Assembly (NCBI GenBank): GCA_050084515.1
Contig: CM114271.1
Location: 20,956,001-21,020,000 of the forward strand
Direction of reading: 5' to 3'
DNA length: 64,000 nucleotides
Source: Blasia pusilla
Lineage: Eukaryota
Positions 1-32,511 of the stretch are shown piece after piece. Each line of letters opens with the position of its first letter. Position 1 is the first letter of the stretch. The position numbers were made by a program, and so were the translations under genes. Under the pieces are notes generated by a model. It was not told the origin of the DNA and did no database searches. It worked only from the letters and a program-made list of their open reading frames with translations.

Positions 1-737
1 TCACCAACGTAGGTAAGGCTGCCCTCAACTCCCCCACCCTATTGGTCATGGCCAACGTTGGTCTATCATCCCGTGTCACCACCTACGATCGACGCCCTGA
101 GCCCAAAATAGCATCCATTGTGAGATGTGGTGCTCTCTGGACTCCATCGTATGCTCGACTGAGTACCTCTGATGGTATCAGGTTTGTCCACCACAATCGT
201 GGATGATGAGCACGTGATCCAACTCTCGCCGCATCTAATAACACAGTAGGTCCCAACTAGGACCTCATCTGATACACATTCGTCATTACACGTGCACGAG
301 TGTCTCCCAACAATGACACGTTCTCCAAGATGTAGGTTGGAGAACATGTCTGACTCTCCTGCAAGTGTTGTACTACTCGTAGCATCTCCCAAAACATCCA
401 TGAACTCGGATCCTGCAATCCAAATCCTCAGTCAGCTGATGAATGACCCTGACATAGCCATCCAGCAATCACCAAATGAATGGTGCCAACTCTATCCAGA
501 TCCTGCGCCCCCACCAAAGAGATGTCGGCGGGTAGTGTATGCTGATATCCCCGTACTGCAGATACCGGAAACAACTCAGGGTACCTCTGGACCAATCGCG
601 CCACGTGACGTAATGATACTCGCCACGCGGTCTCATCTCTCTCCACATAAAGGTACTGATGCACCCTTATGCCCGCCTGCAATACTGCAGCCAATCCGGT
701 GCGAATCCCTCCGAAGAGATCTAACACCCTAACACCC
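1..737 (-). pseudogene. DNMT3-like methyltransferase domain of outer element (partial)
   Basis: VRVLDLFGGIRTGL, IHLVIAGWLCQGHS (PC changed to LC), YILENV (~334-317), LDAARVGSRAHHPRLWWTNL (~239-180). Confidence 0.88.
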
Positions 738-1032
738 TTCTCTGGGCACTGCCACACAACGGGTGTGGTGTCCAGTGGGGTCAACGTCTCCACTCCAAGA
801 GCCCGATCGCCACGTGACTCTCGCTGCTCCGGGATAAAAACATGACTCCACGCCTACCTCACGAGGTCGTCGGCACTCCTCTGTAGCTCTCGAGTCGTAC
901 CCCACAATGGTGAAGAGGTCTCGCCAACATGGGAAGAGACACCCGCCATGGCTTGTCTCTCCGTGGGACTATCCGCCAGGGACATCCTCCGCATGTGCGT
1001 TCCCCTCCAACAACTCTCCTGGTCCGCTAACA

Positions 1033-3308
1033 CTACCTGTGAAATCCGCCAACGTGGTCATTGACTCGCCTCGTGATCGACCACCTCGTCCCGCAAACTG
1101 CACGGGTAACTGACTCATCTAGCCGATAAGCAACGGTCTCCTCCCACAAGTCTAGGATGAATCCTAGAGGATATAACACTATACTCCCCACCAACACATC
1201 GTACGACTCAGCTGGTGTCGTAATCGCACGTGTGTGCACCATAGCACTATCCGTCGCATGCTCTGGCTGGACTCTCACAACTTTCTCCTGTCGAGTCATA
1301 TACTGCATGGGTGACACGCCCCCAATTGAGTTCCGTATCAGGAAGGGACAAGGCTCAATATCGGCCTTCCGTAACCCCAAGGCTAAACACGCCGCCTTCC
1401 CTAACATCAAGGGTTGCGCTCCCGAATCAAGTAGGACGCGCTGCAGGTGGTATATTGTCCTCGTTGGATTAACCAAGTGAAATACTCCAGCTCGGTTATC
1501 CAGTAACACTACTCCAAATGTCACCACTGCTCACTCTATGGCCGGTCAAGCTAGCATATCTACCAACTTGGCCGCCGCCGCATGCCATGACTATGTGGGG
1601 AACGTCCCGAGCACCGGCTCTGAGGGCAAGTCCACCACATCCTCAACTACCTCTGAACAAGAAGCAATCATCTCTCCACGCTCACACAACGTGGCGGCCA
1701 GCCGGAACACCTCAATTGGTCGCCAACTCTATGGCGGAAAATAGTGGAGTCTGACTCACTCTGGTGGCCACCTCCAACACTATGGTCGACACTGACTCCA
1801 CTCGAGCCGGCGTAGGAGTTGTCACTCCAACTCCTCGTGACGTCGACGTAGGTGCTTGAGCTGTAGGCACCGCTGGTTGTCGAGGCACCATCGATGGTGT
1901 GTGTAGTGCCTCGGACAATGTGAATGACTGTGGAACCCTGGCGTGCCGCCCATCCGTCCTCTCTGGTGGGTCAATCTCAACTCCACCTCTCGGTGCCTCT
2001 CGCAACACCCCGAGTCACCACTGCAGCTGCCTCAACCTCGGCTGCACTACACATAAACCCTGTACTGGTGAGATCCTCACCGGGGTCAGGGTAAGAGGTA
2101 GAAGTTGAAGTCACACTAGCTACTCGCAGCTCCGTGCCTTCCCTAAGCTGCATCATCGTCATGGCATCAATCCTCTGCTCCAACAGATCGATGCGTGAGA
2201 GAAGTGTCGGCTCTGGTGCTCCTGCTCCATCTCCTCTGGCTGGTGGTGGTCCTCTACCGCTACGTCTAGGAAGGACTCCCCGACCTCCTCCAGGATGACC
2301 GGCCCCAGGCCCTCGGCCTACCTTTGGACATGCCTCTCGGCGAAGGTCAAAACACCTATCCCTAGTGTGACCATATCTGTGGCAATAGTCACACTGGTGC
2401 TGTGGTGGGGCCATCCTCTATGGCTCCTTAGCAATCGGAGGCGCTCGTGGTCCTCTCCCATGCTGTGGATAGTCTCTCTGCCTATGGGCCCCTCCACACG
2501 TCCAACAAGACCACATCGATCCCTGTTGGGCAACATATGTAGGTACGGGTCGTTGCCTCATAGGCTCACGGTACCCGCCCTGCTCTCTGGGCACACCGGC
2601 CCGCTCTCGTGGTACTGGTGCTCGCTGTGGCACCTGTGGGGTCACCGTCGCTCGTGGACCTGTCGACTCTCGAGAAAATCCAATGGTCACTACCTGCTCC
2701 TCACTCATGTTGAGCTCAATACGCTCAGAAAACTCTAAGGCCAACTTCAATGTGGGCTTCACTGTGTGAATCAACACTGCATCTCGGACTCTCCTCCGTA
2801 GTTCTCGGTCCAGAACCCCGAACCAATACTGGACTGATTGTGTCTCAGTCACTCCATATGTAGCAATGATCAGCCTCCTCATGCGTGTGAATGCCTCTCT
2901 TAGACTCTCACCCGACCATCGCTCAAAATCCCGTAGACTCTTCAGCTTGTCGGTCCGTACGCCCTGGTAGCTCTTCCCCAACTGTCGGAAGAACTCCACA
3001 ATGGGGATGAAGCTGGGTGGCCCTCTACCACCAAAGGTCTTTGCCACATCGCCTATCTCACTGCCCTCCTCTCCATCTAGTCTCCGGGCTGATGGTGTGG
3101 GTCTCTCTCCTCTCACAATCCCATCATATGCCTCGCGACCACTAGTGGACACATACCCTAGAGTCCAATACATCCTCATGGCATCGATCTCTACCAAATA
3201 TAGTGATCAAAACTCCATGTAATCATCCATCGGAGAACCCTCCAAGTGCTGGAACAACCCCTTCCATGCCATGAAAGGGTTGAACCGTATCGGGGTCGAT
3301 ATCTCTTG
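1033..3308 (-). pseudogene. Gag (C-terminal part) and protease of outer element
   Basis: ORFs 2418-3197, 1977-2414 (CDYCHRYGHTRDRC) and 1033-1527 (VLLDSGAQ), with stops and frameshifts between them. Confidence 0.85.
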
Positions 3309-3446
3309 TGTCGTGCGCATACATATCGCTACACAACATACATCGCTGGTCACATCTACACCATACAACACCGATCTTCCCCACACACGGGTTGATCCAC
3401 ACATGTACAAAAATCAACTCATACATATACATGGAGATCACTCAAC
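3309..3446 (-). repeat. Terminal repeat A, outermost 3' copy (138 bp), ending in CA
   Basis: Direct repeat of 3928-4065. It joins B at 3446/3447 with no spacer and is followed by the TSD. Confidence 0.93.
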
Positions 3447-3925
3447 AAAAATAAAGAGTAGTAAAAACGGCACACCGGGCCTAAAACTCCACTCCTCAAT
3501 CTACATCGGCATATCGAGCCTCGTCCACCCTGTGCTATCAAGGAATCCGGACGCTAGCACCCTAGTCCTAGCTCACACACATACAAGGGAGGTGCTCCAA
3601 CGGCCCAACATGAGAAAGATGGCTTAGGAAAGCCATCTTCCTCTCTTATATAGGTTGGGAAGAGCCAAAAGGCTCAAACCCTAGAAATAGCCCTTCCCTT
3701 GATAACCTGCGCGCACAGGTTACCAGAGGCAGGTGACCTGGTCAACAAGTCACATGGCTATAAAAGACCTCAACATAAAAGTCGTCAGAAACAACGTTCC
3801 TGACGCAATGGACCTATCCTCAACCTCATCCGACACTGTGGGACAAAGTTACACTCAAGATAGTCCGCTGGCTCCTACGCCCTATCCACGATAGATCTCA
3901 GCCTATCGGTTACTCAGATGTGACA
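3447..3925 (-). repeat. Terminal repeat B, 3' copy of inner element (479 bp)
   Basis: Direct repeat of 12137-12613, sandwiched between two A repeats. Confidence 0.93.
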
Positions 3926-3927
3926 GT

Positions 3928-4065
3928 TGTCGTGCGCAAACATATCGCTACACAACATACATCGCTGGTCACATCTACACCACACAACACCGATCTTCCC
4001 CACACACGGGTCGATCCACACATGTACAAAAATCAACTCATACATATACATGGAGATCACTCAAC
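3928..4065 (-). repeat. Terminal repeat A, copy adjacent to the PPT (138 bp)
   Basis: + strand tgtcgtgcgc...gatcactcaac. Three substitutions relative to 3309-3446. Separated from B by a 2-bp spacer (3926-3927). Confidence 0.93.
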
Positions 4066-4075
4066 TGCCCCCCTA
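4066..4075 (-). other. Polypurine tract-like motif (TAGGGGGGCA)
   Basis: G-run about 70 nt after the pol stop codon, directly abutting repeat A. Confidence 0.7.
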
Positions 4076-4141
4076 GCTGGCAGTTGGATCCCCCTAACTC
4101 CAGATAGAAAATATCACATCTCTCTAACATGACCTACTACC

Positions 4142-4282
4142 CTATACACATCTCGGACACACCCATCGTCCCGTGGGAACCACATCAAGAGGGGGGGTCA
4201 GACATGACATATGCCACCCTCGAGAACAACCATCACATACCAACATGGTGGCTGCACCCCTCGCATATCCGCACAACATACA
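4142..4282 (-). CDS. PHD finger at the C-terminus of the integrase/pol
   Basis: CMLC-x11-CDGC-x4-HMSC-LTPPLDVVPTGRW-VCPRC, an intact C4HC3 pattern, followed by a stop codon. Confidence 0.92.
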   Translation of the reverse strand, partial: CMLCGYARGAATMLVCDGCSRGWHMSCLTPPLDVVPTGRWVCPRCV

Positions 4283-4499
4283 CCTCAAGCCTGGAGGTAC
4301 CACTGCCAAGCTTGGATCCACCGTCCCATCTACGTTCGGAAGATGACATGGCGCACAATTGCGCACATGATCCTTCCAAACCATACCATCTCGTCCCTCC
4401 AACATGAGGACTCCGGTCGGTAATACTTCGCGCACACGTAGGATAGTGCGCTCTGCAGTGACATCTAGCGTCGTGGGTGCCGCCTGCTGTAAATACACG

Positions 4500-5400
4500 T
4501 AATCTCCAGGATGAAACCTCCTAATCCCTGGAGGATAACCTCCTCCATGAATGGTCGCTACCTCAATGTATCTCTATCTCGGGCAATAGCTAAGTTCTCA
4601 AAGGCCATAGGCATAACTCTATGAAAAACTTCTGCCCTCTAAGAACATGCTTGCACCCACACATCTGGATCATCACGATCTAACACCTCCGCCATGTCAC
4701 GTCGAATCGCTGCATGTAACTCTGGCTCTCTCCCAAAGAGCAAAAAGTACGGTGAAAATGACGCCAAGGATGCTGCCGACTAAAGCGATAACCCATAGCC
4801 AACCATGGCAATCAGAGGTCCCACTCCCTCAATCGCCCCTGCTGCAAGCCATACTTGCGCAATCCTCTCTTCACCGTCTGTACCACTCTCTCCACCAATC
4901 CATCCGCCTCAGGATGATCCCTGGACGTGGTGCGGTGATCTATCGGCGCTGATCACACAAGGCCTGAAACTCTCCCTCGAACTCGGTACTGGTCGGTCAA
5001 CACCTCCGCGGTGCACCAAAGTGACTAAGCACACGATCTAGAAACGCATAAGCTTTTTCCTCGCCGCTTTGTCGGTAGTGCCACCAACTCTATCCACTTG
5101 GAGAAATGCTCCACCATGACCAACACGTACCTATGATGACGCCCTGTCAATGGCAAAGGTCCCGCAAAGTCTAAACTCCACCGATAACCTAAACCCATAA
5201 TCTCAAAAGGATGTAATTGCGGAGTGGGAGCATTGAAGGATGCTCGCACTCTGTCACATACCATACATCTGGCCACAAACTGTTGTACCCTAGTATGCAT
5301 GCCGCGCCACCAATACTGAACCTGGAGTAAGCTGTAAGTACGCTTTACTCCAAAATGTCCCAACTCCTCATCGGCATGTCGCACTACACGTGCTCGCTGG
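4500..5400 (-). pseudogene. DDE integrase (HHCC zinc-binding domain + rve core), frameshifted
   Basis: GHFGVKRTY...YWWRGM...CMVCDR, followed by RWSLDFAGPLP...YVLVMVEHFSKWIE. Confidence 0.9.
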
Positions 5401-5749
5401 GAAGGATGAGGTACCACTTGTATCCTACCATCTCCCCATACCCGCAAAATGTGAGTCCCCTCCCACCTGAACCTCTTGGCTCTCTGTAAGATCCAATCCC
5501 GCTCCCTAGCACTCATTGAACTCGCAATGACGCCAGTGCGCAAGAAGTCCACAACCTCCACGTCGTCATGGATATCACGACCACCTGTCGCCTCCTCACT
5601 AACCTCCGGATCCAAAGACTCATCATCCAACCCCACCACTCGAGTCATCACTGTGGCGACCGCCATAGTCAACCAACAAAGATAGGCGGATGCATGCCAA
5701 CCGGGCACCATCTCCTCATCACTCTCTCGTGCCATTGAGCTCGTGGACG

Positions 5750-6120
5750 TCTCTCGACTCGGACATGGGTTACGACTCGGCCCATCCGCATCCTGGTTCA
5801 GCCGACTGGGCCTATGAACCACCTCAAACTCATACTCTGTAGTAATAGAGCCCACCTGGTAAGCTTTCCATAAGCTTGTCGGACTCCATCAACCACTTCA
5901 ACGGTGATGATCGTGATAAGTGTGAAAGGGTTGCCAAATAAATAGCACCTAAAATATGCCACGGCCCCACCGCAGCCAAGCACTCTCCCTCAAGGAGTCA
6001 GATGCCGCCCTCTGCAATGTTGTTCGATCGCTCGCGTAAGCCACAACGAACTCCCTCTCCTCGTCATCCCTCCGAGTAAGCACCGCTCCTAGACCCAACA
6101 TGCTCCAACCGTATGTAATG
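5750..6120 (-). pseudogene. RNase H domain, frameshifted
   Basis: GLGAVLT...VVAYAS, AVAYFRCYLFGNPFTLIT, KLTRWALLLQ, EYEFEVVHRP...NQDADG.SR. Confidence 0.88.
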
Positions 6121-6379
6121 GAATGGGCGACCCCTAACCGGTCTCTCAAAATGGGTGAGGCGTCAACTTTGTCCTTGAGCTCTGAAATGCTCGCCTCGAT
6201 CATCTCCCCACAACCACACGATCAAGTTTTGTCAACAAGGTCAAAGAACGCACTAAAACCCTTGACATACAAGTCGATAGAAGTTCGCCATCAAGAAATG
6301 CTCGGACTGACTCACATCCAGAGGGCGTGGAATCTGCGCAGAATAGCCTCTACCTTGCCAAATCTGCTGAACGCCTAAC

Positions 6380-7050
6380 CCACTCGGGTATATGGTGTGT
6401 CCCAAGTACTCAATCTGCTCTTGAAAGAATCTGCACTTGCACGGATGTAACCGGTCCATGAAACGCAATCGCTGAAACACCTCCTCCAAGTGTCGCTCAT
6501 GCTCCTCAACCGTGGAATCAAGATAAGAATATCATCTATGTAACATCGCAAAATCTAAGCCAGCCAAAATCCTATCCATCACTGAAACTCCAGCGAGCGC
6601 GTTCTTCAACCCAAATGGTAAGAACCGCCATTGATACAAGCAATCTCTCCCGAACTGATCTATCCCCCGAGAATGTTGTCTTCTCCTGGCCTCCAACCTG
6701 ATAGGAGGCGATGATAGCCAGGACGGAGATCTAAATCTTGAAGATCTTTGCATGCCCTACGCATCAAAGATCTCCTCAGAGTAGGCATGGCATACCGATC
6801 TGACCTCGTCTGTCGGTTGATAGGACGGTAATCTCCACACATCCGCCTATCCGTCCAATTGCCATACATATCCTTCTTTGCCGGCATGACTGTGGCAGAT
6901 GCATACTCCCCATGTGACAACTCCACAAGTCCTGCCTCCAACAAGTCCTGACTCCTGCTCTGAATCAAGGCTCGCTCCATATCAGAATACCTGTAGGATC
7001 GACAAAAGATCGGCGTATCACTAGCCAACTCAATCCGTATCCCGGGACCC
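6380..7050 (-). pseudogene. Reverse transcriptase (Ty3/Gypsy type), frameshifted
   Basis: RMCGDYRPINRQT, DLRPGYH, LPFGLKNA, YIDDIL (~6543-6526), KCRFFQEQIEYLGH. Confidence 0.92.
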
Positions 7051-7500
7051 TTCAACGTACCCAAGTCTCTCATATCAAGGCAAAACAACCGACATGCCCT
7101 CTCGAGAAACCTATGAACTCACCGTCGCTCTCCTCCTATCAACTTGAGACCTATCACAGGCTCCCAAGTCTCCATCATGATCTCACTCGGAGAGGACGCA
7201 ACCTCCGGCTTTGGTTGCTATGTAGCAACCCTAGCCACCTCCGCAACAGCCACTCCACTATGACCTCCTACACCATGCTCCACATCCGAAAAATGAACAT
7301 GTGCTACTCTAGCCGCCTTCGCACTCTCTGCTCAAACGACGTCCCAAGAAGTCCATGGGTGCCTATCTCTCCTCATCTTGCCTGACCAATGCCTGTGACA
7401 GACCTCAGAGGCGTGGTCCAACTCGTGGACGTGGCGGCATGGATGACACTCGCATCCATCTCGCTTCGAGCCATACCTAGGTGACTATCCATGTGAGACA

Positions 7501-8408
7501 GTTGAGGTCCATCGCCCCTAACACTGTCTCCGTGATGCCTCAGTCATCCCTGGCACCGCCGTAGTACCGGTAGTGAACCCCATGGCGCGCTCACGCTCAT
7601 ATGCTGTAGGCTCCTCCAATGCGCCGGTCACCTCATCCCAAATCATGCGTGGCCCTCCATGACGAAAAGCATGGGATGCTGGGAAGCTCACCAACGTAGG
7701 TAAGGCTGCCCTCAACTCCCCCACCCTATTGGTCATGGCCAACGGTGGTCTATCATCGCGTGTCACCACTTGAGATCGACGCCCGAGTCCAAAATAGCAT
7801 CCACCGTGAGATGTGGTGCTCGACTCCATCATGCTTGACTCAGTACCTCGATGGTATCAGGTTTGTCCACCACGATCGTGGGACGATGGGCACGTGACCC
7901 AACTCGCTGCATCTAACAACACGGTCCCGGTCCCAACCAGGACTCACCGATGTACACTCGTCATCACATGTGCACAGTATCTCCCAACAACGGCACGTTC
8001 TCCAAAATGTAGGTTGGAGAACATATCCGACTCTCTGCAAGTGTCGTACTACTCGCAAACATCTCCCAAAACATCCACGACCTCGATCGTGCAATCCAAA
8101 TCCTCGGCCGGTTGATGAATGACCGACATGGCCATCCAAAGCAATCACCAAATGAATGGTGCCAACTCTATCAGATCGTGCGCCCCACCAAAGATATGTC
8201 GGCGGGTAGCGTATGCTGGTATCCCCGTACTGCAGATACCGACAACAACTCAGGATACCTCTGGACCAATCTCGCCACGTGATGTAATGATACTCGCCGC
8301 GCGGTCTCATCTCTCTCCACATAAAGGTACTGATGCACCCGTATGCCCCCCTGCAATACTGCAGCCAATCCGGTGCTAATCCCTCCAAAGAGATCTAACA
8401 CCCTAACA
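7501..8408 (-). pseudogene. C5 cytosine DNA methyltransferase domain (DNMT3-like) within pol of inner element, frameshifted
   Basis: Motifs occur in canonical order: I VRVLDLFGGISTG; II YVERD; IV GWPC (PC at 8131-8126); VI YILENV (~8011-7994); VIII-like DAA..G..AHRP..WWTNL; IX ERERAMGF; X RRQ.LG.AMD. Confidence 0.88.
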
Positions 8409-8829
8409 CCCTCCTCTAGGCACTGCCACACAACAGGTGTGGTATCTAGTGGGGTCATCGTCTCCACTCCAAGAGCCCGATCGCCATGTGACTCTCGCTG
8501 CTCTGGGATAAAAACATGACTCCACGCCTGCCTCACGAGGTCGTCGGCACTCCTCTGTAGCTCTCGAGTCGTACCCCATAATGGTGAAGAGGCATTGCTA
8601 ACATGGGAAGAGACACCCGCCATGGCCTGTCTCTCCGTGGGACTATCCGCTACTGGGACATCCTCCGCATGTGCGTTCCCCTCCAACAACTCTCCTGGCC
8701 AGCTAACACTACCTATGAAAGTCGCCAACGTGGTCATAGACTCGCCTCGTGATCGACCATCTCGTCCCGCTAACTGCACGGGTAACTGACTCATCCGACC
8801 GTCACCTGACCGCCATCCTGGCCGATAAG

Positions 8830-9150
8830 CAACGGTCTCCTCCCAGAAGTCAAGGATACATCCTAGGGGATATAACACTATACTCCCCACCAACACATCG
8901 TACGACTCAGCTGATGTCGTAATCGCACGTGAACGCACCATAGCACTATCCGTCGCATGCTTTGGCTGGACTCTCACAACAATCTCCTGTCGAGTCATAT
9001 ACTGAGTGGGTGATACGCCCCCAATCGAGGTCTGTATCGGAAGGGACAAGGCTCAATGTCGGCCTTCCGTAGCCCCAACGCTAAACACGCCGCCTTCCCT
9101 AACATCAAGGGTTGCGCTCCCGAATCAAGTAGGACGCGCTGCGGGTAGTA
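8830..9150 (-). pseudogene. Retropepsin-like aspartic protease domain of inner element
   Basis: RVLLDSGAQPLMLG (D-S-G active site) and downstream YDVLVG motif. One frameshift near 9045. Confidence 0.85.
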
Positions 9151-9949
9151 AACTATCCCCGTCGGACTAACCAAGCAAAATACTCCAGCTCGGTTATCAG
9201 TAACACTACTCCAAATGTCACCACTGCTCACTCTATGGCCGGTCGAGCTAGCATATCTACCAACTTGGCCGCCGCCGCATGCCATGACTCTGTGGGGAAC
9301 GTCCCGAGCACCGGCTCTGAGGGCAAGTCCACCACATCCTCAACTACCTCTGAACAAGAAGCAATCATCTCTCCACGCTCACACAACGTGGCGGCCAGCC
9401 GGAACACCTCAATTGGTCCAACTTCCAACGTCGCCAACTCTATGGCGGAAAATAGTGGAGTCTGACTCACTCTGGTGGCCACCTCCAACACTATGGTCGA
9501 CATTGACTCCACTCGAGCCGGCGTAGGAGTTGTCACTCCAACTCCTCGTGACGTCGACGTAGGTGCTTGAGCTGTAGGCACCGCTGGTTGTCGAGGCACC
9601 ATCGATGGTGTGTGTAGTGCCTCGGACAATGTGAATGACTGTGGAACCCTGGCGTGCCGCCCATCCGCCTCTCTCTGGTGGGTCAATCTCAACTCCACCT
9701 CTCGGTGCCTCTCGCAACACCCCGAGTCACCACTGCAGCTGCCTCAACCTCGGCTGCACTACACATAAACCCTGTACTGGTGAGATCCTCACCGGGGTCA
9801 GGGTAAGAGGTAGAAGTTGAAGTCACACTAGCTGCTCGCAGCTCCGTGCCTTCCCTAAGCTGCATCATCGTCATGGCAGCAATCCTCTGCTCCAACTGAT
9901 CGATGCGTGAGAGAAGAGCCGGCTCTGGTGCTCCTGCTCCATCTCCTCT

Positions 9950-11250
9950 GGCTGGTGGTGGTCCTCTACCACCACGTCTAGGAAGAACTCCCCGACCTCC
10001 TCCAAGACGACCGCCCCCAGGCCCTCGGCCTACCTCTGGACGTGCCCCTCGGCGAAGGTCAAAACATCTATCCCTAGTGTGACCATATCTGTGGCAATGG
10101 TCACACTGGTGTTGTGGTGGGGCCATCCTCTGTGGCTCTTGCGCAATCGGAGGCGCTGGTGGTCCTCTCCCATGCTGTGGATAGTCTCTCTGCCTATGGG
10201 CCCCTCCACACGTCCAACAAGACCACATCGGTCCGTGTTGGGCAACATATGTAGGTGCGGGTGGTTGCCTCATAGGCTCACGGTACCCGCCCTGGTCTCT
10301 AGGCACACTGGCCCGCTCCCGTGGTACTGGTGCTCGCTGTGGCACCGGTGGGGTCACCGCCGCTCGTGGACCCGTCGACTCTCGTGAAAATCCAGCGGTC
10401 ACTACCTGCTCCTCACTCATACGCTCAGACAACTCAAAGACCACCTTCAATGTGGGCTTCGCTGTGTGAATCAGCACCGCATCTCGGACTCTCCTCCGTA
10501 GTTCTCGGTCCGAACCAGACCAATCTTTGGACTAAGCTGCGCCTCGTCACTCCAACGTAGCAATGATCAGCCTCCTCATGCGTGTGAAGGCCTCTCTCGA
10601 CTCTCACCCGATCGTCGCTGAAAATCCTCAGAGACTCTTCAACTTGTCGGTGCGTACACCCTGGTAGCTCTTCCCCAACCGTCGGAAGAACTTCACCTTT
10701 GTGGGGTGTCAAGCAGGTGGACCTCTACCACCAGAGGTCTCGCCACATCGCTGTGTCCTTTGTCCTCCTCTCTATCTAGTCTCCGGGCTGATGGTGTGGG
10801 TCTCTCTCCTCTCACAATCCTAATCATATGCCTCGCGACCACTAGTGGACACATACCCGGAGCCCAAAACATCCTCCAGGCATCGATCTCTTTGAATATA
10901 GTGATCAAAACTCCATGTAGTCATCCATCGGAGGACCCTCCAAATCTTTGGAACAACCCCTTCCATGCCATGAAAGGGTTGAACCGTGTCGGGTTCAGAT
11001 ATCTCTGGAAGTCGCACCATGTGTCGAACTCCTGGATGAAATCATCTAAGTCGATGGTGCCCATCGCACCGAGAAACGACGCATGCCCCGATGGCCCATG
11101 TCGCCCATCTCCCGCCAAGTACTATGTCTCTCTCATTTCACGATCTCGTCACCAGACCGGTGTCTAGTGATGACGATCGATCCACGGATGGATGTCGAGG
11201 TAGCTCCTAATTGGTAACCCCTCGATATCTCACTCCACTCCGTGTCACAC
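9950..11250 (-). pseudogene. gag: Gag of inner element (frameshifted) with two zinc knuckles
   Basis: Fragments IDLDDFIQEFDTWCDFQ, CWTCGGAHRQRDY (degenerate knuckle) and CDHCHRYGHTRDRC (CCHC), spread over several frames. Boundaries approximate. Confidence 0.8.
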
Positions 11251-12123
11251 CACTACCACTGCTCGCACTGCCCCGTTCTTCCGAACCCTGGAAGAACGCC
11301 GTGATGACAAACCCTGTCTCACCCACTCAAGCACTCAGACTCACCGAAAGTCTCCCACACGCCTCACTAGCTCACCTATGCTAACATCAATCCCATGATG
11401 ACATACCCGCCTCACGACGCTCAACACTCGGGCTCACCATGAGCCTCCCAACCGACTCACCTAACCTAGCGACACACTCTCGGGTCATACACGCGACCCT
11501 ACTTCGGCAACCGTCGTATATCCACCAACATGCTACACATGAAAAGAATCTACACTCGTCACCATCTAGCACCAGCTACTACCCGATACCCAACACTCTC
11601 AATCACACACGACAAGTGCGAGAAAAGGGACTCGAATGGGTAACCTGATCACGCCCTCCAACCTCCTGCACCGTCAATATGCACTCCTCCACATGATATG
11701 ACAATCTCCGCCACATAACACTCCCCTCGACCAACACGCCGATCCTCCCACAATCAACAGATCACGGACAACCCGTCGGCATCATGCACACTGCCCCTCC
11801 ATCGTAAACTCTCGCAACGCCCTATGCGCGCCTCACAAACAACATGTCATGCAAACCCCTCTGTCCAACTTGTCGATCACTCAACACGTCGACATCCTCC
11901 CTGCCCTCACGTTGACCATGCGCACCGCGTTCGCCGGACCGACCTCGTCCGTCCTACCACGTTCGCTACGACTGTCCGACCGCCGTCGGTGCTACCACGT
12001 CGGAGAGGGGGAAAGAAATTGGACCGCGGCCCTATGCGGGCCCCTTGGGCCCTAAATGCGGGGGAACGCTTTAGCAACTCGCTTGCCTACCTGCAAACAA
12101 CGAATTCCCACCAGCCCCTTGAC

Positions 12124-12136
12124 ATCTTTCTCATGT
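12124..12136 (-). other. Putative self-priming primer-binding site (ACATGAGAAAGAT)
   Basis: Lies immediately inside repeat B, lacks the TGG of tRNA-primed PBSs, and is the exact reverse complement of 12298-12310. The same site is present at 13836-13848. Confidence 0.75.
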
Positions 12137-12613
12137 AAAAATAAAGAGTAGTAAAAACGGCACACCCGGCCTAAAACTCCACTCCTCAATCTACATCGGC
12201 ATATCGAGCCTCGTCCACCTTGTGCTATCAAGGAATCCGGACGCTAGCACCCTAGTCCTAGCTCACACACATACAAGGGAGGTGCTCCAACGGCCCAACA
12301 TGAGAAAGATGGCTTAGGAAAGCCATCTTCCTCTCTTATATAGGTTGGGAAGAGCCAAAAGGCTCAAACCCTAGAAATAGCCCTTCCTTGGTAACTGCGC
12401 AAGACAGGTTACCAAAGGCAGTGACCTGGTCAACAAGTCACCCGGCTGTAAAAGACCTCAACATGAAAGTCGTCAGAAACAACGTTCCTGATGCAATGGA
12501 CCTATCCTTAACCTCATCCGACACTGTGGGACAAAGTTACACTCAAGATAGTCCGTTGGCTCCTACGCCCTATCCACGATAGATCTCAGCCTATCGGTTA
12601 CTCAGATGTGACA
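12137..12613 (-). repeat. Terminal repeat B, 5' end of inner element (477 bp; contains TATA and predicted TSS)
   Basis: Near-identical to 3447-3925 (roughly 15-20 differences counted by eye) and similar to 13849-14327. Starts TGTCAC on the minus strand. Confidence 0.93.
12310..12342 (-). promoter_or_regulatory. LTR promoter: TATATAA box and predicted transcription start (C|A)
   Basis: Minus-strand TATATAA at 12342-12336, with a YR initiator 32 nt downstream (12310). Conserved in all three B copies. Confidence 0.65.
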
Positions 12614-13848
12614 CCTGGAAGTTGCACCATGTGTCAAACTCCTGGATAAAATCATCTAAGTTGATGGTGCCCACTGCACCCGAGAAACGACGCATGCCTT
12701 GATGGCCCATGTCGTCCATCTCTTGCCAAGTACTACTGTCTCTGTCTGCGATCTCGTCACCAGACCCAATGTCTAGTGATGACGATCTAGCCACGGATGG
12801 ATGTCGAGGTAGCTCCTCACTGGTAACCCCTCGGTATCTCACTCCACTCCGTGTCACACCACTACCACTACTAGCACTACCCCGCTCTTCCGAACCCTGG
12901 AAGAACGCCGTGATGACAAACCCTGTCTCACCCGCTCAAGCACTCAGACTCACGAAGAGTCTCCCACACTCCTCACTAGCTCACCTATGCTAATGTCAAT
13001 CCCGTGATGACACATCCGGCCTCACGCATACTCAACACTCGGGCTCACCACGAGCCTCCCAACTGACTCACCTAACCTAGCGACACTCTCAGTTCATACA
13101 TGCGACCCCTACGCGGCAACCGCCGTATATCCACCAACATGCTACATATGAACAGAATCTACACTCGTCACCATCGCTGCACCCACCTAGCACCAGCTAC
13201 TACCCGATACCCAACACTCTCAATCACACATGACAAGTGTGGGAAAAGGGACTCGAATGGGTAACCTGATCACAGCCTCCAACCTGCTGCTCCGTCAACA
13301 TGCATTCCCCCATGGGACACGGCAACCTCTACAACACAACACTCTCCTAGACCAACACGTCGATCCTCCCGTCAACAGATGCGGACAACCCGTCGGCATC
13401 ATACGCACTGACCCTCCATCTAAACTCTAAAAAACTTAGTACAAGCCCGCTCAACCACGTAGCGCTCATAACCATGTAAGTAGTTCCACCCGGATAGCCT
13501 GGTCACCACATCCTGAACCCTACCACATTGCCATCCAACCACGTTGATGGGGGGGGCGGCGGCGCACCGTCGCCGTCCGCCCATGCGACCTAAACGCCTG
13601 CTCTTTCTTGACAATCTCGCTGATAAACTCGCTGCCCCACTCTGTACTACACTGTGCCACTGTCCTCAATCCCTGTGCACCACCAAATTCTGAGAAAAAT
13701 GGACAGCGCTTCCGCCCACGGCCTTCTGACCAGAAAAATGAAAAACACCCACAACACACGCGTCTCCAAGGGCTCCCGACCAAGGCAACTTGCTTGCCTA
13801 CTTGCAAACAACGAATTCCCACCAGCCCCCTTGGCATCTTTCTCATGT

Positions 13849-14327
13849 AAAAATAAATAGTAGTAAAAATGGCACACCCGCCCTAAAACTCCACTCCTCA
13901 ATCTACATCGGCATATCGAGCTTCGTCCACCCTGTGCTATCAAGGAATCCGGACGCTAGCACCCTAGTCCTATCTCACACACATACAAGAGAGGTGCTCC
14001 AATGGCCCAACTTGAGAAAGATGGCTTAGGAAAGCCACCTTACTCTCTTATATAGGGTTGAGAAGAGCCAAAAGGCTCTTCCCTAAAAATAGCCCTCCCT
14101 TTGGTAACCTGCGCGCATAGGTTATCAGGGGCGGGTGATCTGGTCAACAAGTCACCCGGCTGTGAAAGACCTCAACATGAGAGTTGTGAGAAACGACGTT
14201 CGTGACACAATGGACCTATCCTCAACCTCATCCGACACCGTGGGACAAAGTTACACTCAAGATAGTCCGCTCGCTCCTACGCCCTATCCACGATAGATCT
14301 CGGCCTATCGGCTACTCAGATGTGACA
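13849..14327 (-). repeat. Terminal repeat B, 5' end of outer element (479 bp)
   Basis: Diverged direct repeat of 12137-12613 with the same boundaries. It is followed by the same PBS-like site (13836-13848) and likewise has no A segment. Confidence 0.9.
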
Positions 14328-14332
14328 GGCTT

Positions 14333-14927
14333 TGTGAGTAGTAGAGGATAGGCTGAGTAGGTCGAGGATGACCCGTTGAGGCCCCTGGAAACCTGAGAGA
14401 GCAGGTTTCCCCTTCGTTTCGGCTCATTTGGAGCCATATTGAAGAACTTAATATTCTAGGTAATTACCATTTTGAGTATATGATCGACTTTCTATTTTTG
14501 GTTAGTGGCCCTTGACCTCCTACATCAGGTCAAGAGTCAAGGAGGTGACTTGGGAGAATAGGTTACCATGGTGAGAGCTTGAGAGAGGGGAGGGGTATAC
14601 CTCAAGGAGAGAGAGCTTGAAAGCTCATTGTCTCTTTGTTGAACCTCTTGGCATGAGGCGACGGAGCTATGGTTCCTTGCCTTGTGAGTGTAACCCAAGC
14701 CTCTCATTAGGAGAGTGGGTTTGGTTTGACATGAGAGAGAGTGCACAACTTTGAGAGCTATGGTGTGAGATGGTGTAGAGAGAGATTGGATCTTACTTTA
14801 TTGGAGATATTTTGGTACTTCTTGCGTCTGTGTATGCATGCCATGAGTTAGCATGGGATACTGTGTGTTTGTGTGTGTGTTCGATGACAGCGATGTATAT
14901 TGTGTAGCGATGTTTATGCGCACGACA
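14333..14927 (+). mobile_element. Solo-LTR-like remnant of a related retroelement family
   Basis: Starts TG and shares gataggctgag with the start of B. Its last ~43 bp (tgacagcgatgtatattgtgtagcgatgtttatgcgcacgaca) match the end of repeat A, ending in CA. No TSD found, so the left boundary is uncertain. Confidence 0.6.
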
Positions 14928-15182
14928 AGTGGTTTCGATCCCCCATAATTCGAAAAATTACCAAACCATAAGATCAAATATCTCTTAATATTCTTCTAGT
15001 TCCTACATACTAGAATTCAATGGTTGATGGATTAATTTTGGAAATTTTACGTCTCGGGACACTACAATAACTATAAATCCATATGATTTTTGTTCAATCC
15101 TAGATTCCTTCAATAATTCATCAAAATGCAAGAAGATACACTTTATGGACTTGTGTTTGAGGTTCTTCCTTAGATAATAAAG

Positions 15183-18451: not shown

Positions 18452-21400
18452 ATGGCAGATACTGCACAGCCCTTGGCTGGTCCGGATACAAGCTTTTACC
18501 TTTCACAAGCAGCTGCTGTAGCCATCGATGAGGAGCTCATGGGACCTTTGGGATTCAGCATTGATCAACTAATGGTACCCTCTCTCGCTTTCTGTTATTT
18601 TCTACTCTGTGTTGTATGAGTTCACTTACGAAACTTCATCCGAAAAATCTGGTTCGGCAAAGATCTATTGTTACTTAAATCTTTGTAGGTGAACCTTAGC
18701 AGCTGTTCCAGGATATGGTAAGTAGAGAGCATGATGGTTGAAGTGCCATCAAATTGTGGAAAGAAAGTTTCGATGTCTCTCCCTTCCAACTGCTCGTCCG
18801 TTGGTATAGTGGCTATTAATGCACTGGTTGAATATGTTGCAGGAACTGGCTGGACTGAGTGTTGCGTCAGCGATTGCAGAGGTAGCCAACTTGTCCACGA
18901 AGAGCAATTTTGTAGCAATCATCCAATGCCTGGCATTCCTTTTCTTCACTTGAGGTGATATTAATTGTACACATATTCTCCGTGTATTAAGCTAAGCTTC
19001 AAACGTGTCACCTTTCCCATGGCCTCCTTCTGAGGAAAAGCATTATGAGGCACAAGGAGTTTTGTGTTCTCTGGAAGGCAAGTGTGATTCCTTAATTTCA
19101 ATTGATTAGCCAACTGTTAGCCCAATGCAATGCAATGTATTTGATACAGCTCACAAATAGATGGTAAATGCAGGTGTATGGAGTTCAAGGACATTCTCGT
19201 GTTCTTGTCATATGTGGACCGGGAAATAATGGTGGTGATGGCCTAGTTGCCGCTCGTCATCTCCATCACTTTGGTTACAAGCTTTCAGTTTGCTATCCCA
19301 AGCGCACGGACAAGCCATTGTACCATGGGCTAGTAACCCAGGTTTGTTTCTCTGACATCCTTGTTGACAAACTAGTACATTACACTAGGCATCTAGGTCT
19401 TTTTGAAATTATGCTATTGTGTGACCAGGGTAATTCTGCTCAATTTTTTTTTGGATTTGATGTCCACTTAAAGTTGAATGGACTTTATTTACTTCTTTCC
19501 AATTCACAGCCTGAGCAGTGTATTGTTTGTCGATCTGCTTACAGTTGGAGAGTCTCTCTGTGCCATTTTTGTCAGTGGCGGACTTGCCTTCCCGAATTGC
19601 TGATGACTTTGATGTGGTGGTGGATGCTATGTTTGGGTTCTCATTCAAAGGTAAAGCCTCTTTGGACCATACTTGACCTGTGAAATACCCCAAGTTTGAT
19701 TCTCGAGTCCATCTTTGGCTCACAATTAGAATCTCTTGTTGTGCCGTGGAATGTTATAGACCTAAGTAAACACATTTGTTAATTTTACATGGAGGAGATT
19801 CATATCATCAGTTTCTGCAGGGAAACCTCGTGTTCCATTTGATACGCTTCTGCAGCAACTTGCAGTGCCGAGTGGTTCTACTGCGGAAGATATTGGATTA
19901 CCTATTGTGGTGTCTATAGACATTCCGTCTGGTTGGCATGTTGAAGAGGGTGATGTAGAGGGGACAGGATTTGCGCCTGATATGCTGGTATATGTCCGTT
20001 CACTTCTTTGCCCCTGATTTGTAACCAGCTTCTGCTGATCCTCATGTTTTCGCTTGCTTCTTATGAGGATCCAAGGTCTAAACATGGGTTATTTCAACTT
20101 TTCAGGTTTGCAATGCTGTAGTTGTCATTTGCCCCCTTATTCTGTCTTGTAAACGAGTATTGTCAAATTGGGAATTCTTATAATGGTAAAAGCAATGCGG
20201 CTTGTTATTTGGGTGTTTTGGTGTCAGGTTTGGGTTCTGAAGGGAGGAGACATACCTCTGACTTGCCAAATGTAGACTTGAATTGACATGGTATCTTATC
20301 ATTTAGTTTGAAGTTTGTAACTGTTATTGGCTTGGTGTTGGTATTTCTGAAAAACCTGTGCTGCTTGCACTCAAATTTTGCTTCCATCTGTCTTGTTGTA
20401 GGTATCACTTACTGCACCTAAGTTGGGTGTAAAAAAGTTCAAGGGAGTCCATCACTTTCTTGGGGGCAGATTCGTTCCCCCAGCTGTGCTTCAAAAGTAT
20501 GGGTTACGGCTACCAGCATATCCTGGTTCGTCAATGTGTGTACGAATTGGAAAACTTCCAGCTATAGATGTGGCAGCACTTCGTGAAAACTATGTGGGTT
20601 ATGAGCTGTCAGAGCAACAAGCAAACCCTGACCCTATAAAGCAGGTGCTTGGGCTCATGCCTCCTATTACTGCTCAATTGCCTGCTGGGATTAAATTTGC
20701 AAGGAATGAGATTGATTCCTGGATTTCATCTTGTAGTGGGAGGAAAGGCTGTTTAGGGTTTCTAGGCTTGGATTCTTCAAGAAAGAGATTTCTTTTAGTG
20801 AGGATCTTGGGATTTTCTTAGTGTTCATCTGAGAGCCTCTCTAAAGTTTTTATGTATTGGGGTATCTTCCTTGAACATAAGTTTCCCCTCCAAGAACACC
20901 ACCCACCAGGCGACCAGTATCAGTAGCAGGCATTGAACTCATGACAAGCACTGAGCTCTTTGTGCAATCATATCTTTTTTGGACCAGGGTGACAATATGA
21001 TGGGTTCACAGTAGTTTGGGTTGGGTCGTGTTGAAGGTTCACCATTATTCCAAGCTCACACCATGAGATGAATTATGCAGTTTAAAGAGTGGTTTGGAGA
21101 CGCGGTATCAGCTGGAGTCCATGAACCAAATGCCATGTGCCTAGCAACAGCAGATGACCATGGCAGACCGTAAGTGTCCCTCCTTCATGGTTTACATCAC
21201 AAGGTGATGTTTATAATTAAATTGTGCATTCTGACTTCTTTTGATGTTTTGTTCACCACTGACATATCTTCACTTAAAAGCCAGTTTCTCAATCTAAAAG
21301 CAGATCCCCTCATCATATCAATGCTTACAAGCATATTGGAGGAAATCCCATGCACGTCTTCAGCCAGGACCACGGCGTATTAAAGAATTTAATGCATCCA

Positions 21401-27000: not shown

Positions 27001-29475
27001 ACCGTCGATAAATCATCACTATAAATGATGAAAATCCTTCTCAATTAACTAAGTTAGGACAAAAGAATGTAAATTGTGATCGTCATTAGTCCCCGGATGG
27101 TACAAGCATTCACTAGTACATTTTTCAGGGAGATTTTTTTGTTTGGAAATTTCTAGAATAGAAGATGTAATTCTCCTATTAAAGTGTGTTTATTAATGGA
27201 GTCTCCTAGGTCTAGAGTTGGAAAGGAAAAACATTCTTAATCTCTTCTTCATATTGGCCATGGTGAAAAAAAAATTTAAAAATAAAATGCAAAAGAAAGT
27301 TATACAATAAACTCAAACTTCTTGCTTATTTTTGTAAATGATCTAGATAGACATAGTGGATATATGTCCAACCTCAAGATAATTCCTCTACATTAATGTT
27401 AAGAGAGACAGGTCCAAAGCTAATTAAGGGATGTGTGTGTATAAATCACCATTTGCGATGGATTTTTGTTTTTTGGATTCCATGCATAGTGAGGGATGAG
27501 GTTCTCTCCTTGTCTTTGTGATTATTGGCACTCTTCATGTTTATGCAAGCTACCACTCTCTTTTGTATGTGTAAATGAGAGAATGTAGGTCCTAGAAGTT
27601 TAGTAGTCTCTAGACATACTAGGCTCGATATTTCTCTACACTTGCTATAATAAATAACAGCAAGGATCAATATTTTCCTTACACTTGTAGAGTGATAGGA
27701 TGAAAATGAAAAGTCTTAGCATAAGGTCCCACCAATATGAATGCTAGAAATAGAAAAAAATAGTTGGTTAATTATTTTGGATGAAATATTTCTGGCCACG
27801 AATTTAGGAGTTAAAAAACCTTTCCGAGTTAGATATTTGCAGAAAATCTTGGACGAGAGATGAAGTTGAGAAATAGAGTGGAAGAAGAAAAAGACAACTT
27901 TTCAACGAGAAAGGGATTATAAGGGGTTTATTCGTTTCTAGTATTAGAGGAGGTTTCTCCTTCTCTCCTCGGGAAGAAAGAATGGGCCTTCCTTCGGGGA
28001 TTTAAGAAGAGCTAGTTAACTCCTATTCATTATGAAGGAGAAAGGAATAATATAAGCGTCAATGCGTCATCTTCATCAATAGCCTTTCATCGAGAAATGA
28101 GGTAGACAATGGAAGAAGAGGGAAGGGATAGATGAACAAAGAGAGGGTCCCTTGTCCCCCAAGTCTTTCCACCTAAGGCCATCCTCGTTGAAACCCAAAA
28201 TGAGTTTAATAAAGTTCGGTCTTTGGGGGAGAGGCGTGAAACAAGTGAGGAAGGAGAAAATTAATCCGTTTGGCGTAGGGTTTGAAAAATTATGTCTTCG
28301 TTATGAAATAATATTTTTTAATAATTTAATTTGATGTGATAGAAAATACAGAAACATACGACATCTTACATTCACCCCAAACTAATAACTTACTTTTAGC
28401 AACTAGAAATTTTCTATTCTTTTTGAATTTTCACAAAGCACATGGGAACTTATTTAAGAGCTTTTCTATTTTCTAGCTCTCAAAACATGATCATCATTAG
28501 AAAAGAAAATTATTTGAAAACTTAAATAAGTTTTATTATCTAGTTTTTGAGATAAATTGATACAGAAATTCATGTCAAATGGAGAATACATGAGAATAGT
28601 AGTGCATTACCTTCTTGAATTTGCCATTAACCCTCGTTGGATTTAAAGAAACCAATTACTTGGCCCTCATTTGTTAAGTTAACACTGTCTTCTTTTTTTC
28701 CTCTCCATCTAATCTATGTTTTACAATTAATTTATCTCTCTTTCAGCCCCCGAAGAGTTTTTTTTTCCATTTTCAAGCATAAAATCATTTAAAATATTAA
28801 TATTTTTATAAATGAAAATAGAAAAAAAAAAACTTCAAAAGAAATAATATGACTATGAGAAACATGATTAAGAAAAAACTTCAAAAGAAATAATATGAGT
28901 ATTTGCTTCCAGCTTTTATGACCTTGAAGATTTGTATCTTTGCTTCTATCTCCAATTACTCTGGTTATCTGGTTATAAAACCATAAAAAGTTGGACGAAA
29001 TCACGTTAGTGGCCGTAAATTCAAACTGGTTTAATAAACATGATTTTTAAAAATAGAAAAAAATTCAAAAAGAAATAAGAAATCATGGAAATATGAGCTT
29101 ACCACGGCTAACTCTGGCTTTTTTCGGTTCTTACGAGCAGCGGAGGACATCAGGAAAGAAGCAAGAAAGACGCAAAAGGAGTGGTTGTGCGGTATTCACC
29201 CCCCTTCTCTCTTCCTTTCTTTCTTGGAGAGACCTCCCGAGAACTTGTCAGCTGCAGCCGCTGCAGTGCCCCGTCGGTTATTAGGATTCCCATCTCTGCA
29301 ATTCTATTCCAGAGGATGCGCTGCGCTTGGTGCCGTGGTCTGCTGCCGAGGTCGAGCGGAGGTGGTGTGCATCGAATGCGGAGTCGACTGAGTTGAAGAC
29401 GGACATCGGATCGGCGGGGGCTGCAAACGAGATTGTTGTTGCGTTGGGTGCCGGGAGCGCTTTCGGGCATCGGCT

Positions 29476-30072
29476 ATGGCCGCAGTGGTTTCTGCTTTTC
29501 CCAGCACGACTCCGACGCCCTTGCGCGAAAGCGTGCTGCAGCGGTCGCCCGCGTCGAGAAGGGTGAGGTGCGGAGCGCGGTGCGGTCCTGTGAGCGAAGA
29601 GGCTGGGAAGGTCGGGGAGGTTTTGGGTGGAAGCTTGTACGGGTTGTTAGGCGTGGAGCAGAACGTGAGCCTTACTGATATCAAGAGCGCTTACAGGCAG
29701 ATGGCGCGCCGCTACCATCCGGATGTGTGCGCGCCTTCCCGGCGAGAGGAGTGCACCCGATTGTTTTTGCAGGTGCAAGATGCGTATGAGATTTTGTCCG
29801 ATCCTGAGCAGAGGGCGGCGTATGACTATCATTTGATGCATCCGCTGAGCGCGAATGCTCTGGGATTCGGAAGGATGGTCAGGAACAAGAGGAGAGAAAG
29901 AGAGAATGCTTCGGATGCCTGGAGACTGCAGTGGCAGGCTCAGCTGTCGAGAATTGGAATGAGGGCACGAACGGAGCAGAACCAGACTGAAGGAGAGTCG
30001 TGGGGTGCGCGCATGCGCCGGCGCTCGTCGCAGGAGAGGCAGTCCGGATCATGCGATGCTGGGAAGCTTTGA
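29476..30072 (+). CDS. Small type-C J-domain (DnaJ) protein, probably plastid-targeted (DnaJ11/DJC-like)
   Basis: 198-aa intronless ORF with an S/R-rich N-terminus, the J domain SLYGLLGV...IKSAYRQMARRYHPD...FLQVQDAYEILSDPEQRAAYD, and a C-terminal WQAQL...SWGARMR segment. Confidence 0.93.
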   Translation: MAAVVSAFPSTTPTPLRESVLQRSPASRRVRCGARCGPVSEEAGKVGEVLGGSLYGLLGVEQNVSLTDIKSAYRQMARRYHPDVCAPSRREECTRLFLQVQDAYEILSDPEQRAAYDYHLMHPLSANALGFGRMVRNKRRERENASDAWRLQWQAQLSRIGMRARTEQNQTEGESWGARMRRRSSQERQSGSCDAGKL

Positions 30073-32301: not shown

Positions 32302-32511
32302 TTGAGATTTAGGATTAGTTAGATTATTAGTGACGGGTAAGTTTACTAATTAATTTACATTTTTTGTGCATCGTACAAACCTCCACTAGTGACATTTATA
32401 ACGATTGAGATTTAGGATTAGTTAGATTATTAGTGACGGGTAAGTTTACTAATTAATTTACATTTTTTGTCCATCGTACAAACCTCCACTAGTGACATTT
32501 ATAACGATTGA
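32302..32511. repeat. 103-bp tandem duplication (2 copies)
   Basis: ttgagatttaggattag... starts at both 32302 and 32405; one mismatch seen. Confidence 0.92.

Follow-up and report, generated by a model that had tools for sequence, protein, structure and literature searches.

The minus strand of the 64,000-nucleotide stretch of DNA analysed here (the window) reads, from 3936 to 3918, CGCACGACA-AC-TGTCACAT: GACA ends at 3928, a spacer AC occupies 3927-3926, and TGTC starts at 3925. The locus raises the question of why two such ends, of the kind an inserted element presents to its host, should lie head to head inside the element's own long terminal repeat (LTR), and whether an integrase might act on them there. 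That TGTC and GACA ends abut across 2 bp, as claimed in an earlier account made from the letters of this DNA (the sequence-only reading), can be read directly at these positions. Taken alone, the motif GACANNTGTC is not unusual, occurring three times in the window against 1.52 expected and at least three times in 15 of 100 shuffles; it is the position and the conservation of the junction that carry weight.

Self-comparison places the junction spacer at the exact boundary between two repeat families, B and A, within a nested element (E2) that interrupts an older copy (E1). The features of the two copies, with their primer-binding sites (PBS) and polypurine tract (PPT), are:

1 to 3308, minus strand: rest of E1, a gag-protease-DNMT-like region that matches 7688-11006 of E2 at 90.7% identity; it leaves the window.
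3309 to 12613, minus strand: E2, nested element of 9305 bp, TGTCACATC...GCGCACGACA, arranged A1-internal-B1-AC-A2-B2 (from self-BLAST and flank reading).
3309 to 3446, minus strand: B2, terminal copy of B; at the A2/B2 joint (3447/3446) the end of U5 stands on the start of U3.
3447 to 3925, minus strand: A2, second part of the RT-defined LTR, with the end CTTTATTTTT; 96.5% identical to A1; within it TATA at 3652 to 3641 and the primer site at 3621 to 3608.
3922 to 3931, no strand assigned: head-to-head ends GACA-AC-TGTC, proposed internal attachment site, spacer at 3926-3927.
3928 to 4065, minus strand: B1, first part of the RT-defined LTR, with the end GCGCACGACA; 97.8% identical to B2 over 138 bp.
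4066 to 4074, minus strand: polypurine-tract-like AGGGGGGCA, directly upstream of B1.
4142 to 7118, minus strand: decayed pol remnants (RT, RNase H, integrase with H2C2 and DDE core, C-terminal PHD finger), with stops and frameshifts.
8171 to 9052, minus strand: protease / DNMT-like region of E2 with DLFGG...ERDE motifs, from the ORF text; E1 counterpart at 428-853.
12123 to 12136, minus strand: primer-binding site ACATGAGAAAGATG, beginning at the first base after A1 and a perfect reverse complement, over 14 nt, of 12311 to 12298.
12137 to 12613, minus strand: A1, 5' terminal repeat of E2, with TATATAAG at 12342 to 12335 and the predicted transcript start.
12298 to 12311, minus strand: CATCTTTCTCATGT in A1, predicted RNA 5' end and self-primer, about 31 nt past the TATA motif TATATAAG.
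12614 to 14327, minus strand: 5' part of E1, with the host/TGTCACATC boundary at 14327, a third copy of A at 14327 to 13849 (91.7% in the self-comparison) and the PBS at 13848 to 13835.

The sequence from 1 to 14327 is GC-rich (52-56%), and the rest of the window has about 42% GC. After the low-GC host DNA the first sequence of E1, at 14327, is TGTCACATC, which also opens E2 at 12613, right after the interrupted older copy; GCGCACGACA closes E2 at 3309, immediately before the remainder of E1. The break in E1 at 12614 and its resumption at 3308 are the same point approached from either side, and the flanks of E2, CAGG and CAAG, form a 4-bp duplication with one transition. Since host or interrupted sequence abuts both TGTC and GACA, the two halves of the junction are real insertion ends. 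The 2-bp AC spacer is missing from the integrated ends, at the boundaries 14327, 12613 and 3309 alike, which bears out what the sequence-only reading had said of the spacer. An interpretation of the locus as a tandem array of two elements with a common LTR was replaced by nesting, E1 being broken at one point.

The two window copies have in common A, the PBS and about 63 nt past A; 12073-11813 of E2 and 13784-13429 of E1 (minus strand) are then unrelated stretches of 261 and 356 bp, after which homology returns, and their sequences look like a variable leader segment. In the host DNA, a 103-bp unit stands twice in tandem at 32302-32507 (copies 99% identical) in a stretch of 31% GC, and the host ORFs at 29392-30072, 19168-19683 and 44122-47922 comprise DnaJ and YjeF_N fragments and one long ORF carrying a weak Ig domain of CFAP65 type; the host is a eukaryote, probably one with cilia.

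The limits of the LTR were sought in the priming sites. In the window AGGGGGGCA (4074 to 4066) abuts B1 at the position expected of a polypurine tract, and in the related loci described below every B start is preceded either by ...CTAGGGGGGCGAG (B1 position) or by the end of A (B2 position). On the other side of the LTR, the PBS of E2 is the unique maximum among 8046 start positions, and in all five elements tested the site is the single best among about 7,000-8,800. The complementarity to A that follows A1 extends over 11 nt in E1 and, with a different sequence, over 17 nt in loci L019 and L015; L053 has a third pair of about 15 nt, and three families carry three different covarying pairs. 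A match of at least 10 nt was present in 14 of 17 copies, in 12 of them past the TATA-like motif and in two at a second copy of the motif; the weak copies are L014, with 7 nt, and L034 and L042, with none. In the RNA predicted from start to PBS the 5' end folds onto the PBS (z = -2.9 in both cases), a result that adds little because the ends of the folded stretch were picked by hand. Neither the window nor the 80 loci yielded a tRNA gene. The pattern of these matches is that of Tf1-type self-priming, with the transcript start predicted. With the polypurine tract abutting B and the PBS abutting A, the LTR made by reverse transcription is B-NN-A, and the ends of the insertion therefore lie inside it; the order polypurine tract, B-NN-A, primer-binding site is in line with the earlier claim that the junction is buried within the LTR.

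Two further observations concern these sites. The sequence TGGTTTCGATCCCCC, past a B fragment at 14928, was considered as a tRNA-type PBS and dropped, read tails after B being heterogeneous. Locus L070 (3246-3880) reads PPT-B-GC-A, after which the first 180 nt of A return in inverted orientation from the PBS on, and the copy closes with the inverted start of A, ...TCATGACA, beside an AT-rich flank; eight reads of the window family join 3447 to 3608 on opposite strands, and a joint of the L070 type fits a snap-back of plus-strand strong-stop DNA ending at the PBS.

Reads and contigs of four runs were mapped onto 3440-4300 (run X22 contributing 16,031 raw reads), and metagenome contigs were searched with the integrase ORF, yielding 80 loci; in the metagenome search 153 of 339 candidate stretches encode a relative, at 48-78% identity. 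Three organism labels contribute about 16,000 reads and contigs with the layout, and the junction is bridged by contigs of labels B (record 21) and D (record 12). In run X22, depth is about 2000-2200 over A, 1900-2050 over B and 950-1150 over the end of pol, a ratio A:B:pol of about 2:2:1 that is compatible with every model considered. Just past ...GACA, 698 + 1303 read tails of that run are heterogeneous and AT-rich, with an agreement of 0.33; the heterogeneity of these 2001 tails indicates that B ends the element family-wide, without a common downstream sequence such as a PBS. The joint between A end and B start appears in the reads as joints that go "back about 619", the main form in 335 reads, with minor variants.

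The spacer is constant in length and variable in letters. Among the 65 B ends in the 80 loci, 20 are followed by an A start, each time across exactly 2 nt (17 were retrieved by a strict pattern, and L026, L053 and L071 were added by eye), and these 20 junctions represent about 16 distinct sites once loci with common flanks are merged. The check on conservation of CA-NN-TG and of spacer length that the sequence-only reading had proposed thus gave a 2-nt spacer in 20 of 20 related junctions, and it did so in the family reads as well. The spacers are GC, AC, AT, GT and a single TC (L074, whose matching locus L077 has GC), those other than TC being GC or one or two transitions away from it; differences within the family are likewise mostly transitions (C>T at 88 places, G>A at 61). 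In run X22 the spacer letters vary, with T>C at 3927 in 781 of 1888 reads and G>A at 3926 in 429 of 1876, and no insertion or deletion at the junction was found among 12 of the 15 indel entries. In several copies the junction is a perfect palindrome, GACAGCTGTC.

Target duplications are perfect over 4 bp in nine of 11 complete related elements (AAGG, TCTC, AATC, CATA, TACA, ATTA, TGTG, TACA and ATGC) and carry one mismatch in the other two; duplications of 4 bp point to staggered integration of the DDE type. In 625 reads B-NN-TGTCACATCT is kept and a different A body follows (3916), and 800 reads diverge upstream of 4107, which indicates subfamilies with a common junction and different surroundings. 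A 40-bp fragment at 14888-14927 (plus strand) resembles the last 40 bp of B and adjoins a (CA)n-like tract; a separate abundant repeat has only those 40 bp in common with the family (817 + 1351 tails with one consensus) and gives a depth peak of 5311 at 3933-3961.

The window ORFs, although decayed, still match Pfam PHD (5e-11) and Integrase_H2C2 (1.1e-14), with rve, RVT_1 and RT_RNaseH_2 below the cut-offs, in the same order as in the intact relative L053; the DNMT-like ORFs of the window gave no Pfam match, and their resemblance consists of motif-level remnants. In L053, ORF1 (1369 aa) encodes an aspartic protease and a C5 DNA methylase (PF00145, 1.8e-13), the methylase, within the 976-5082 region of L053, having DNMT3A/3B/3C as best PDB matches (about 2e-7), and ORF2 (1047 aa) encodes RVT_1, RNase H, Integrase_H2C2, rve and PHD, its best PDB match being the Ty3 Gag-Pol polyprotein (4.4e-98). 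The integrase of L053 has the D, D-35-E residues. Neither 15 window ORFs nor the intact frames of L053, L054 and L001 gave a tyrosine recombinase (Phage_integrase) match. L053 and L054 have long uninterrupted frames with one stop codon between ORF1 and ORF2, and in the polyprotein order, intact in L053, a DNMT3-like C5 cytosine methyltransferase lies between protease and RT.

These features assign the element, by its sequence, to the plant-type Ty3/gypsy retrotransposons and probably to their DNMT-carrying lineage; the window holds a decayed member with the order gag-protease-DNMT3-like, RT-RNase H-DDE integrase-PHD. The RT-RNase H-integrase order, Ty3-like RT, DDE integrase, TG...CA ends and short duplication are those of Ty3/gypsy elements; two complete LTRs at the integrated ends are missing, the complete B-NN-A occurring once, internally. 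The split direct repeats A1...B1A2B2 are those of the DIRS order, with a DDE integrase instead of the tyrosine recombinase. As in Gypsy-DNMT3 elements, A-coding-B-A-B repeats occur together with Gypsy domains, and where a Tf1/sushi element would have a chromodomain, a PHD finger stands at the C-terminus of the integrase.

The integrated form corresponds to a two-LTR circle opened at the CA-NN-TG of its PBS-side LTR. A linear copy, [B-NN-A]-PBS...PPT-[B-NN-A], gives A1...B1-NN-A2-B2 only if the end of A joins the start of B; A2 being joined to B2 in the integrated copy, the DNA that integrated would have had its LTR tips joined. The A2/B2 joint usually contains two PPT-proximal nucleotides (AG or AA), three in L002, and in L028/L034 about five (CGAG) together with a 16-nt filler that duplicates a piece of the A end; minor variants of the joint and inserted letters occur among the window family's reads. 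To judge from these sequences it behaves like a fresh tip-to-tip joint.

We consider it reasonably probable that the element integrates via the internal CA-NN-TG site, from joined-tip DNA, after Tf1-type reverse transcription. Minus-strand synthesis would start from the PBS abutting the A end, where the element's own RNA would pair by its 5' end, and plus-strand synthesis from the G-rich polypurine tract abutting B, so placing the integrase recognition ends head to head within the LTR (...GACA-NN-TGTC...), away from the LTR tips. Each strand would then be nicked after CA, 2 bp apart, giving two recessed CA-3'OH ends with 2-nt 5' overhangs. Recessed CA-3'OH ends with such overhangs are the usual substrate of strand transfer, and here they would join the target with a 4-bp stagger. 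The tips would be joined either in a two-LTR circle or through ligation of loose tips once the site in the PBS-side LTR had been cut and inserted, and the product would be A1-PBS-internal-PPT-B1-NN-A2-B2. We infer the nicks after CA, the joined-tip or circular intermediate and the transcript start; the arrangement suggests that the integrase cuts the internal site rather than the tips of a linear DNA copy. Of the sequence-only reading, the structural claims are well supported, and the enzymatic ones, nicking after CA on both strands of a junction carried by a circle, are plausible. That a whole lineage of DDE-integrase retrotransposons in streptophyte-type genomes normally integrates through an internal palindromic CA-NN-TG with LTR tips joined is a more tentative proposition, to which we give somewhat less than even credence.

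Some observations fit this route poorly. A free two-LTR circle has two identical sites, yet the alternative permutation, A-B-NN-A-PBS...B, was seen at none of 17 5'-terminal A copies (about 14 distinct) and in neither window copy, and the observed permutation occurs at 13 distinct sites; on a rough estimate, random choice between the sites would yield zero alternative permutations with P of about 0.01. Only the site in the PBS-side LTR seems to be used, an asymmetry that the circle model leaves unexplained. Timing offers a speculative account: the PBS-side LTR might become double-stranded long before the other, and so be cut and inserted first, the two loose tips being joined later. One contig, L053, reads PPT-B-GT-A-PBS; it may be unintegrated DNA, a tandem array or the result of a collapsed assembly, and was not counted as evidence for circles. 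The metagenome contigs were assembled from short reads through repeats. The window copy itself is decayed, and its own target duplication has one mismatch.

Among other explanations the one that survives best, although we regard it as improbable, gives the junction the part that it would have in a DIRS-like element: B1-NN-A2 would be a stored internal template of the joined termini, with which RT template switching rebuilds or circularises the ends that the RNA lacks, the A2/B2 joint being inherited and the integrase inserting the product. The strict conservation of the junction would suit such a template, and the layout matches the A-coding-B-A-B given for DIRS-order elements in the legends to Fig 1e and Fig 4c of PMC5890265. 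This account has to contend with a polypurine tract abutting B and a self-priming site abutting A, which already make up a complete standard LTR logic, with a left edge of B2 that extends variably into PPT-proximal bases, as fits a fresh joint, and with 4-bp duplications in elements where a tyrosine recombinase was not found.

An unlikely second possibility dispenses with the circle. Deep internal cuts in both LTRs of a linear cDNA would take away B-NN on the left and NN-A on the right, with A...B copies as the direct products and B1-NN-A2-B2 as a minority by-product. Single-B copies (PPT-B-flank) are indeed the more numerous, at about 21 distinct sites against 13 for the full form, and five of them (L010, L029, L042, L043 and L080) have perfect 4-bp duplications; single-B copies may have formed directly, from one-LTR circles or from cuts in both LTRs. 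However, only the full form keeps a downstream U3-R and so only it can give a replicating RNA; single-B copies, which have none, should be unable to replicate and cannot carry the lineage, and each of the families examined has the full form. Moreover, L042 (12707-12819, single B) and L046 (7600-8171, B1-AT-A2-B2) are one insertion site, with the TGTG duplication in common and flanks 92-95% identical, so that loss by recombination between B1 and B2 does happen. On the route through joined tips, single-B copies (A1...PPT-B) would arise at least sometimes in this way.

It is very improbable that A+B is a canonical LTR integrated in the ordinary linear manner, with B1 an internal duplication and the 5' B lost. 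At 618 bp, with a TG start and a CA end, A+B does resemble a normal LTR, but B follows none of the 17 5' copies of A, the primer-binding site follows A and not B, the flank past B ends is heterogeneous in 2001 reads, and A2 has no polypurine tract before it. That the junction arose by chance as a palindrome, through faulty assembly or by a single rearrangement in this window is scarcely credible, for although the bare motif is no rarer than chance, the junction recurs in the raw reads of one independent run, in contigs that carry three organism labels and at the roughly 16 distinct sites in metagenome contigs.

If integration via the internal site is true, retroviral-type integrases are not confined in nature to linear DNA tips: in one lineage the attachment sites would have shifted into the LTR, and that lineage would rely on an intermediate with joined tips. 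For retroviruses the circle-junction pathway was put forward and later abandoned; here it would exist in a natural and obligatory form, so that the old question of whether the circle junction is a productive substrate of integrase could be tested in a natural system. Integration of this kind would also link LTR elements mechanistically with the split-repeat elements of DIRS type, and explain the DIRS-like repeats of Gypsy-DNMT3 elements. LTR finders that expect two full LTRs and a target duplication will mis-annotate these abundant elements.

The arrangement A1-internal-B1-A2-B2, with its internal copy of the joined termini, is that of the PAT-like/Ngaro elements of the DIRS order, which are unlike the present family in having a tyrosine recombinase where we find a DDE integrase, TG...CA ends and 4-bp duplications; PAT-like/Ngaro elements are not known to make a target duplication. 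Among DNA transposons, the DDE enzymes of IS3/IS911 and IS30 integrate circles whose abutted ends lie a few bp apart, and these elements move without reverse transcription and are unrelated in sequence to the family described here.

Integrase of PFV reportedly cleaves a palindromic junction in vitro. HIV-1 integrase tetramers are described as cutting the palindromic two-LTR junction in vitro (PMC1905944), and a published passage recounts both the SNV construct with an internal circle junction of Panganiban and Temin (1984) and the refutation of the retroviral circle-junction model in favour of linear DNA (PMC11054761). As portrayed in these passages, the retroviral junction resembles ours in being an abutted CA...TG palindrome that can be cut internally, and a provirus integrated from an internal site is permuted; the retroviral junction lies between two LTRs, its ends are 4 bp apart and it serves as a dead-end or artificial substrate, whereas the present junction is internal to the LTR, has a 2-bp spacer and appears to act as the regular site. 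In Tf1/sushi elements and Tcn1 a PBS next to U5 is complementary to the element's own transcript start, and the Tcn1 clade occurs in mosses and club-mosses, where self-priming is predicted (PMC6317226, in the passages on these elements); with canonical LTRs and a chromodomain as described there, they differ from the present family, which has permuted termini and a PHD finger.

The closest known system is described for a charophyte alga. KnitGypsy-Dnmt3 of Klebsormidium nitens has Gypsy domains, DNMT3 in Pol and the order A-coding-B-A-B (de Mendoza et al. 2018, PMC5890265), and the figure legends of that paper state that the repeats of KnitGypsy-Dnmt3 and SymbioDIRS are "the same as that of a DIRS retrotransposon"; a passage of a 2026 preprint mentions "streptophytes (Gypsy-DNMT3)". 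Section 9 and the legends of PMC5890265 give no account of ends, spacer, target duplication, PPT, PBS or integration route, and, supplements aside, the legend remark of 2018 is all that was found in the literature on DDE-integrase elements with split repeats or an internal attachment site. The layout is therefore already in print (2018), and a mechanistic reading of it was not found in print. Compared by their published description, in the section and legends cited, KnitGypsy-Dnmt3 and the present family are alike in their Gypsy pol domains, in the order A-coding-B-A-B and, to judge from L053, in a DNMT3-like methyltransferase within the polyprotein; in the present family a PHD finger follows the integrase.
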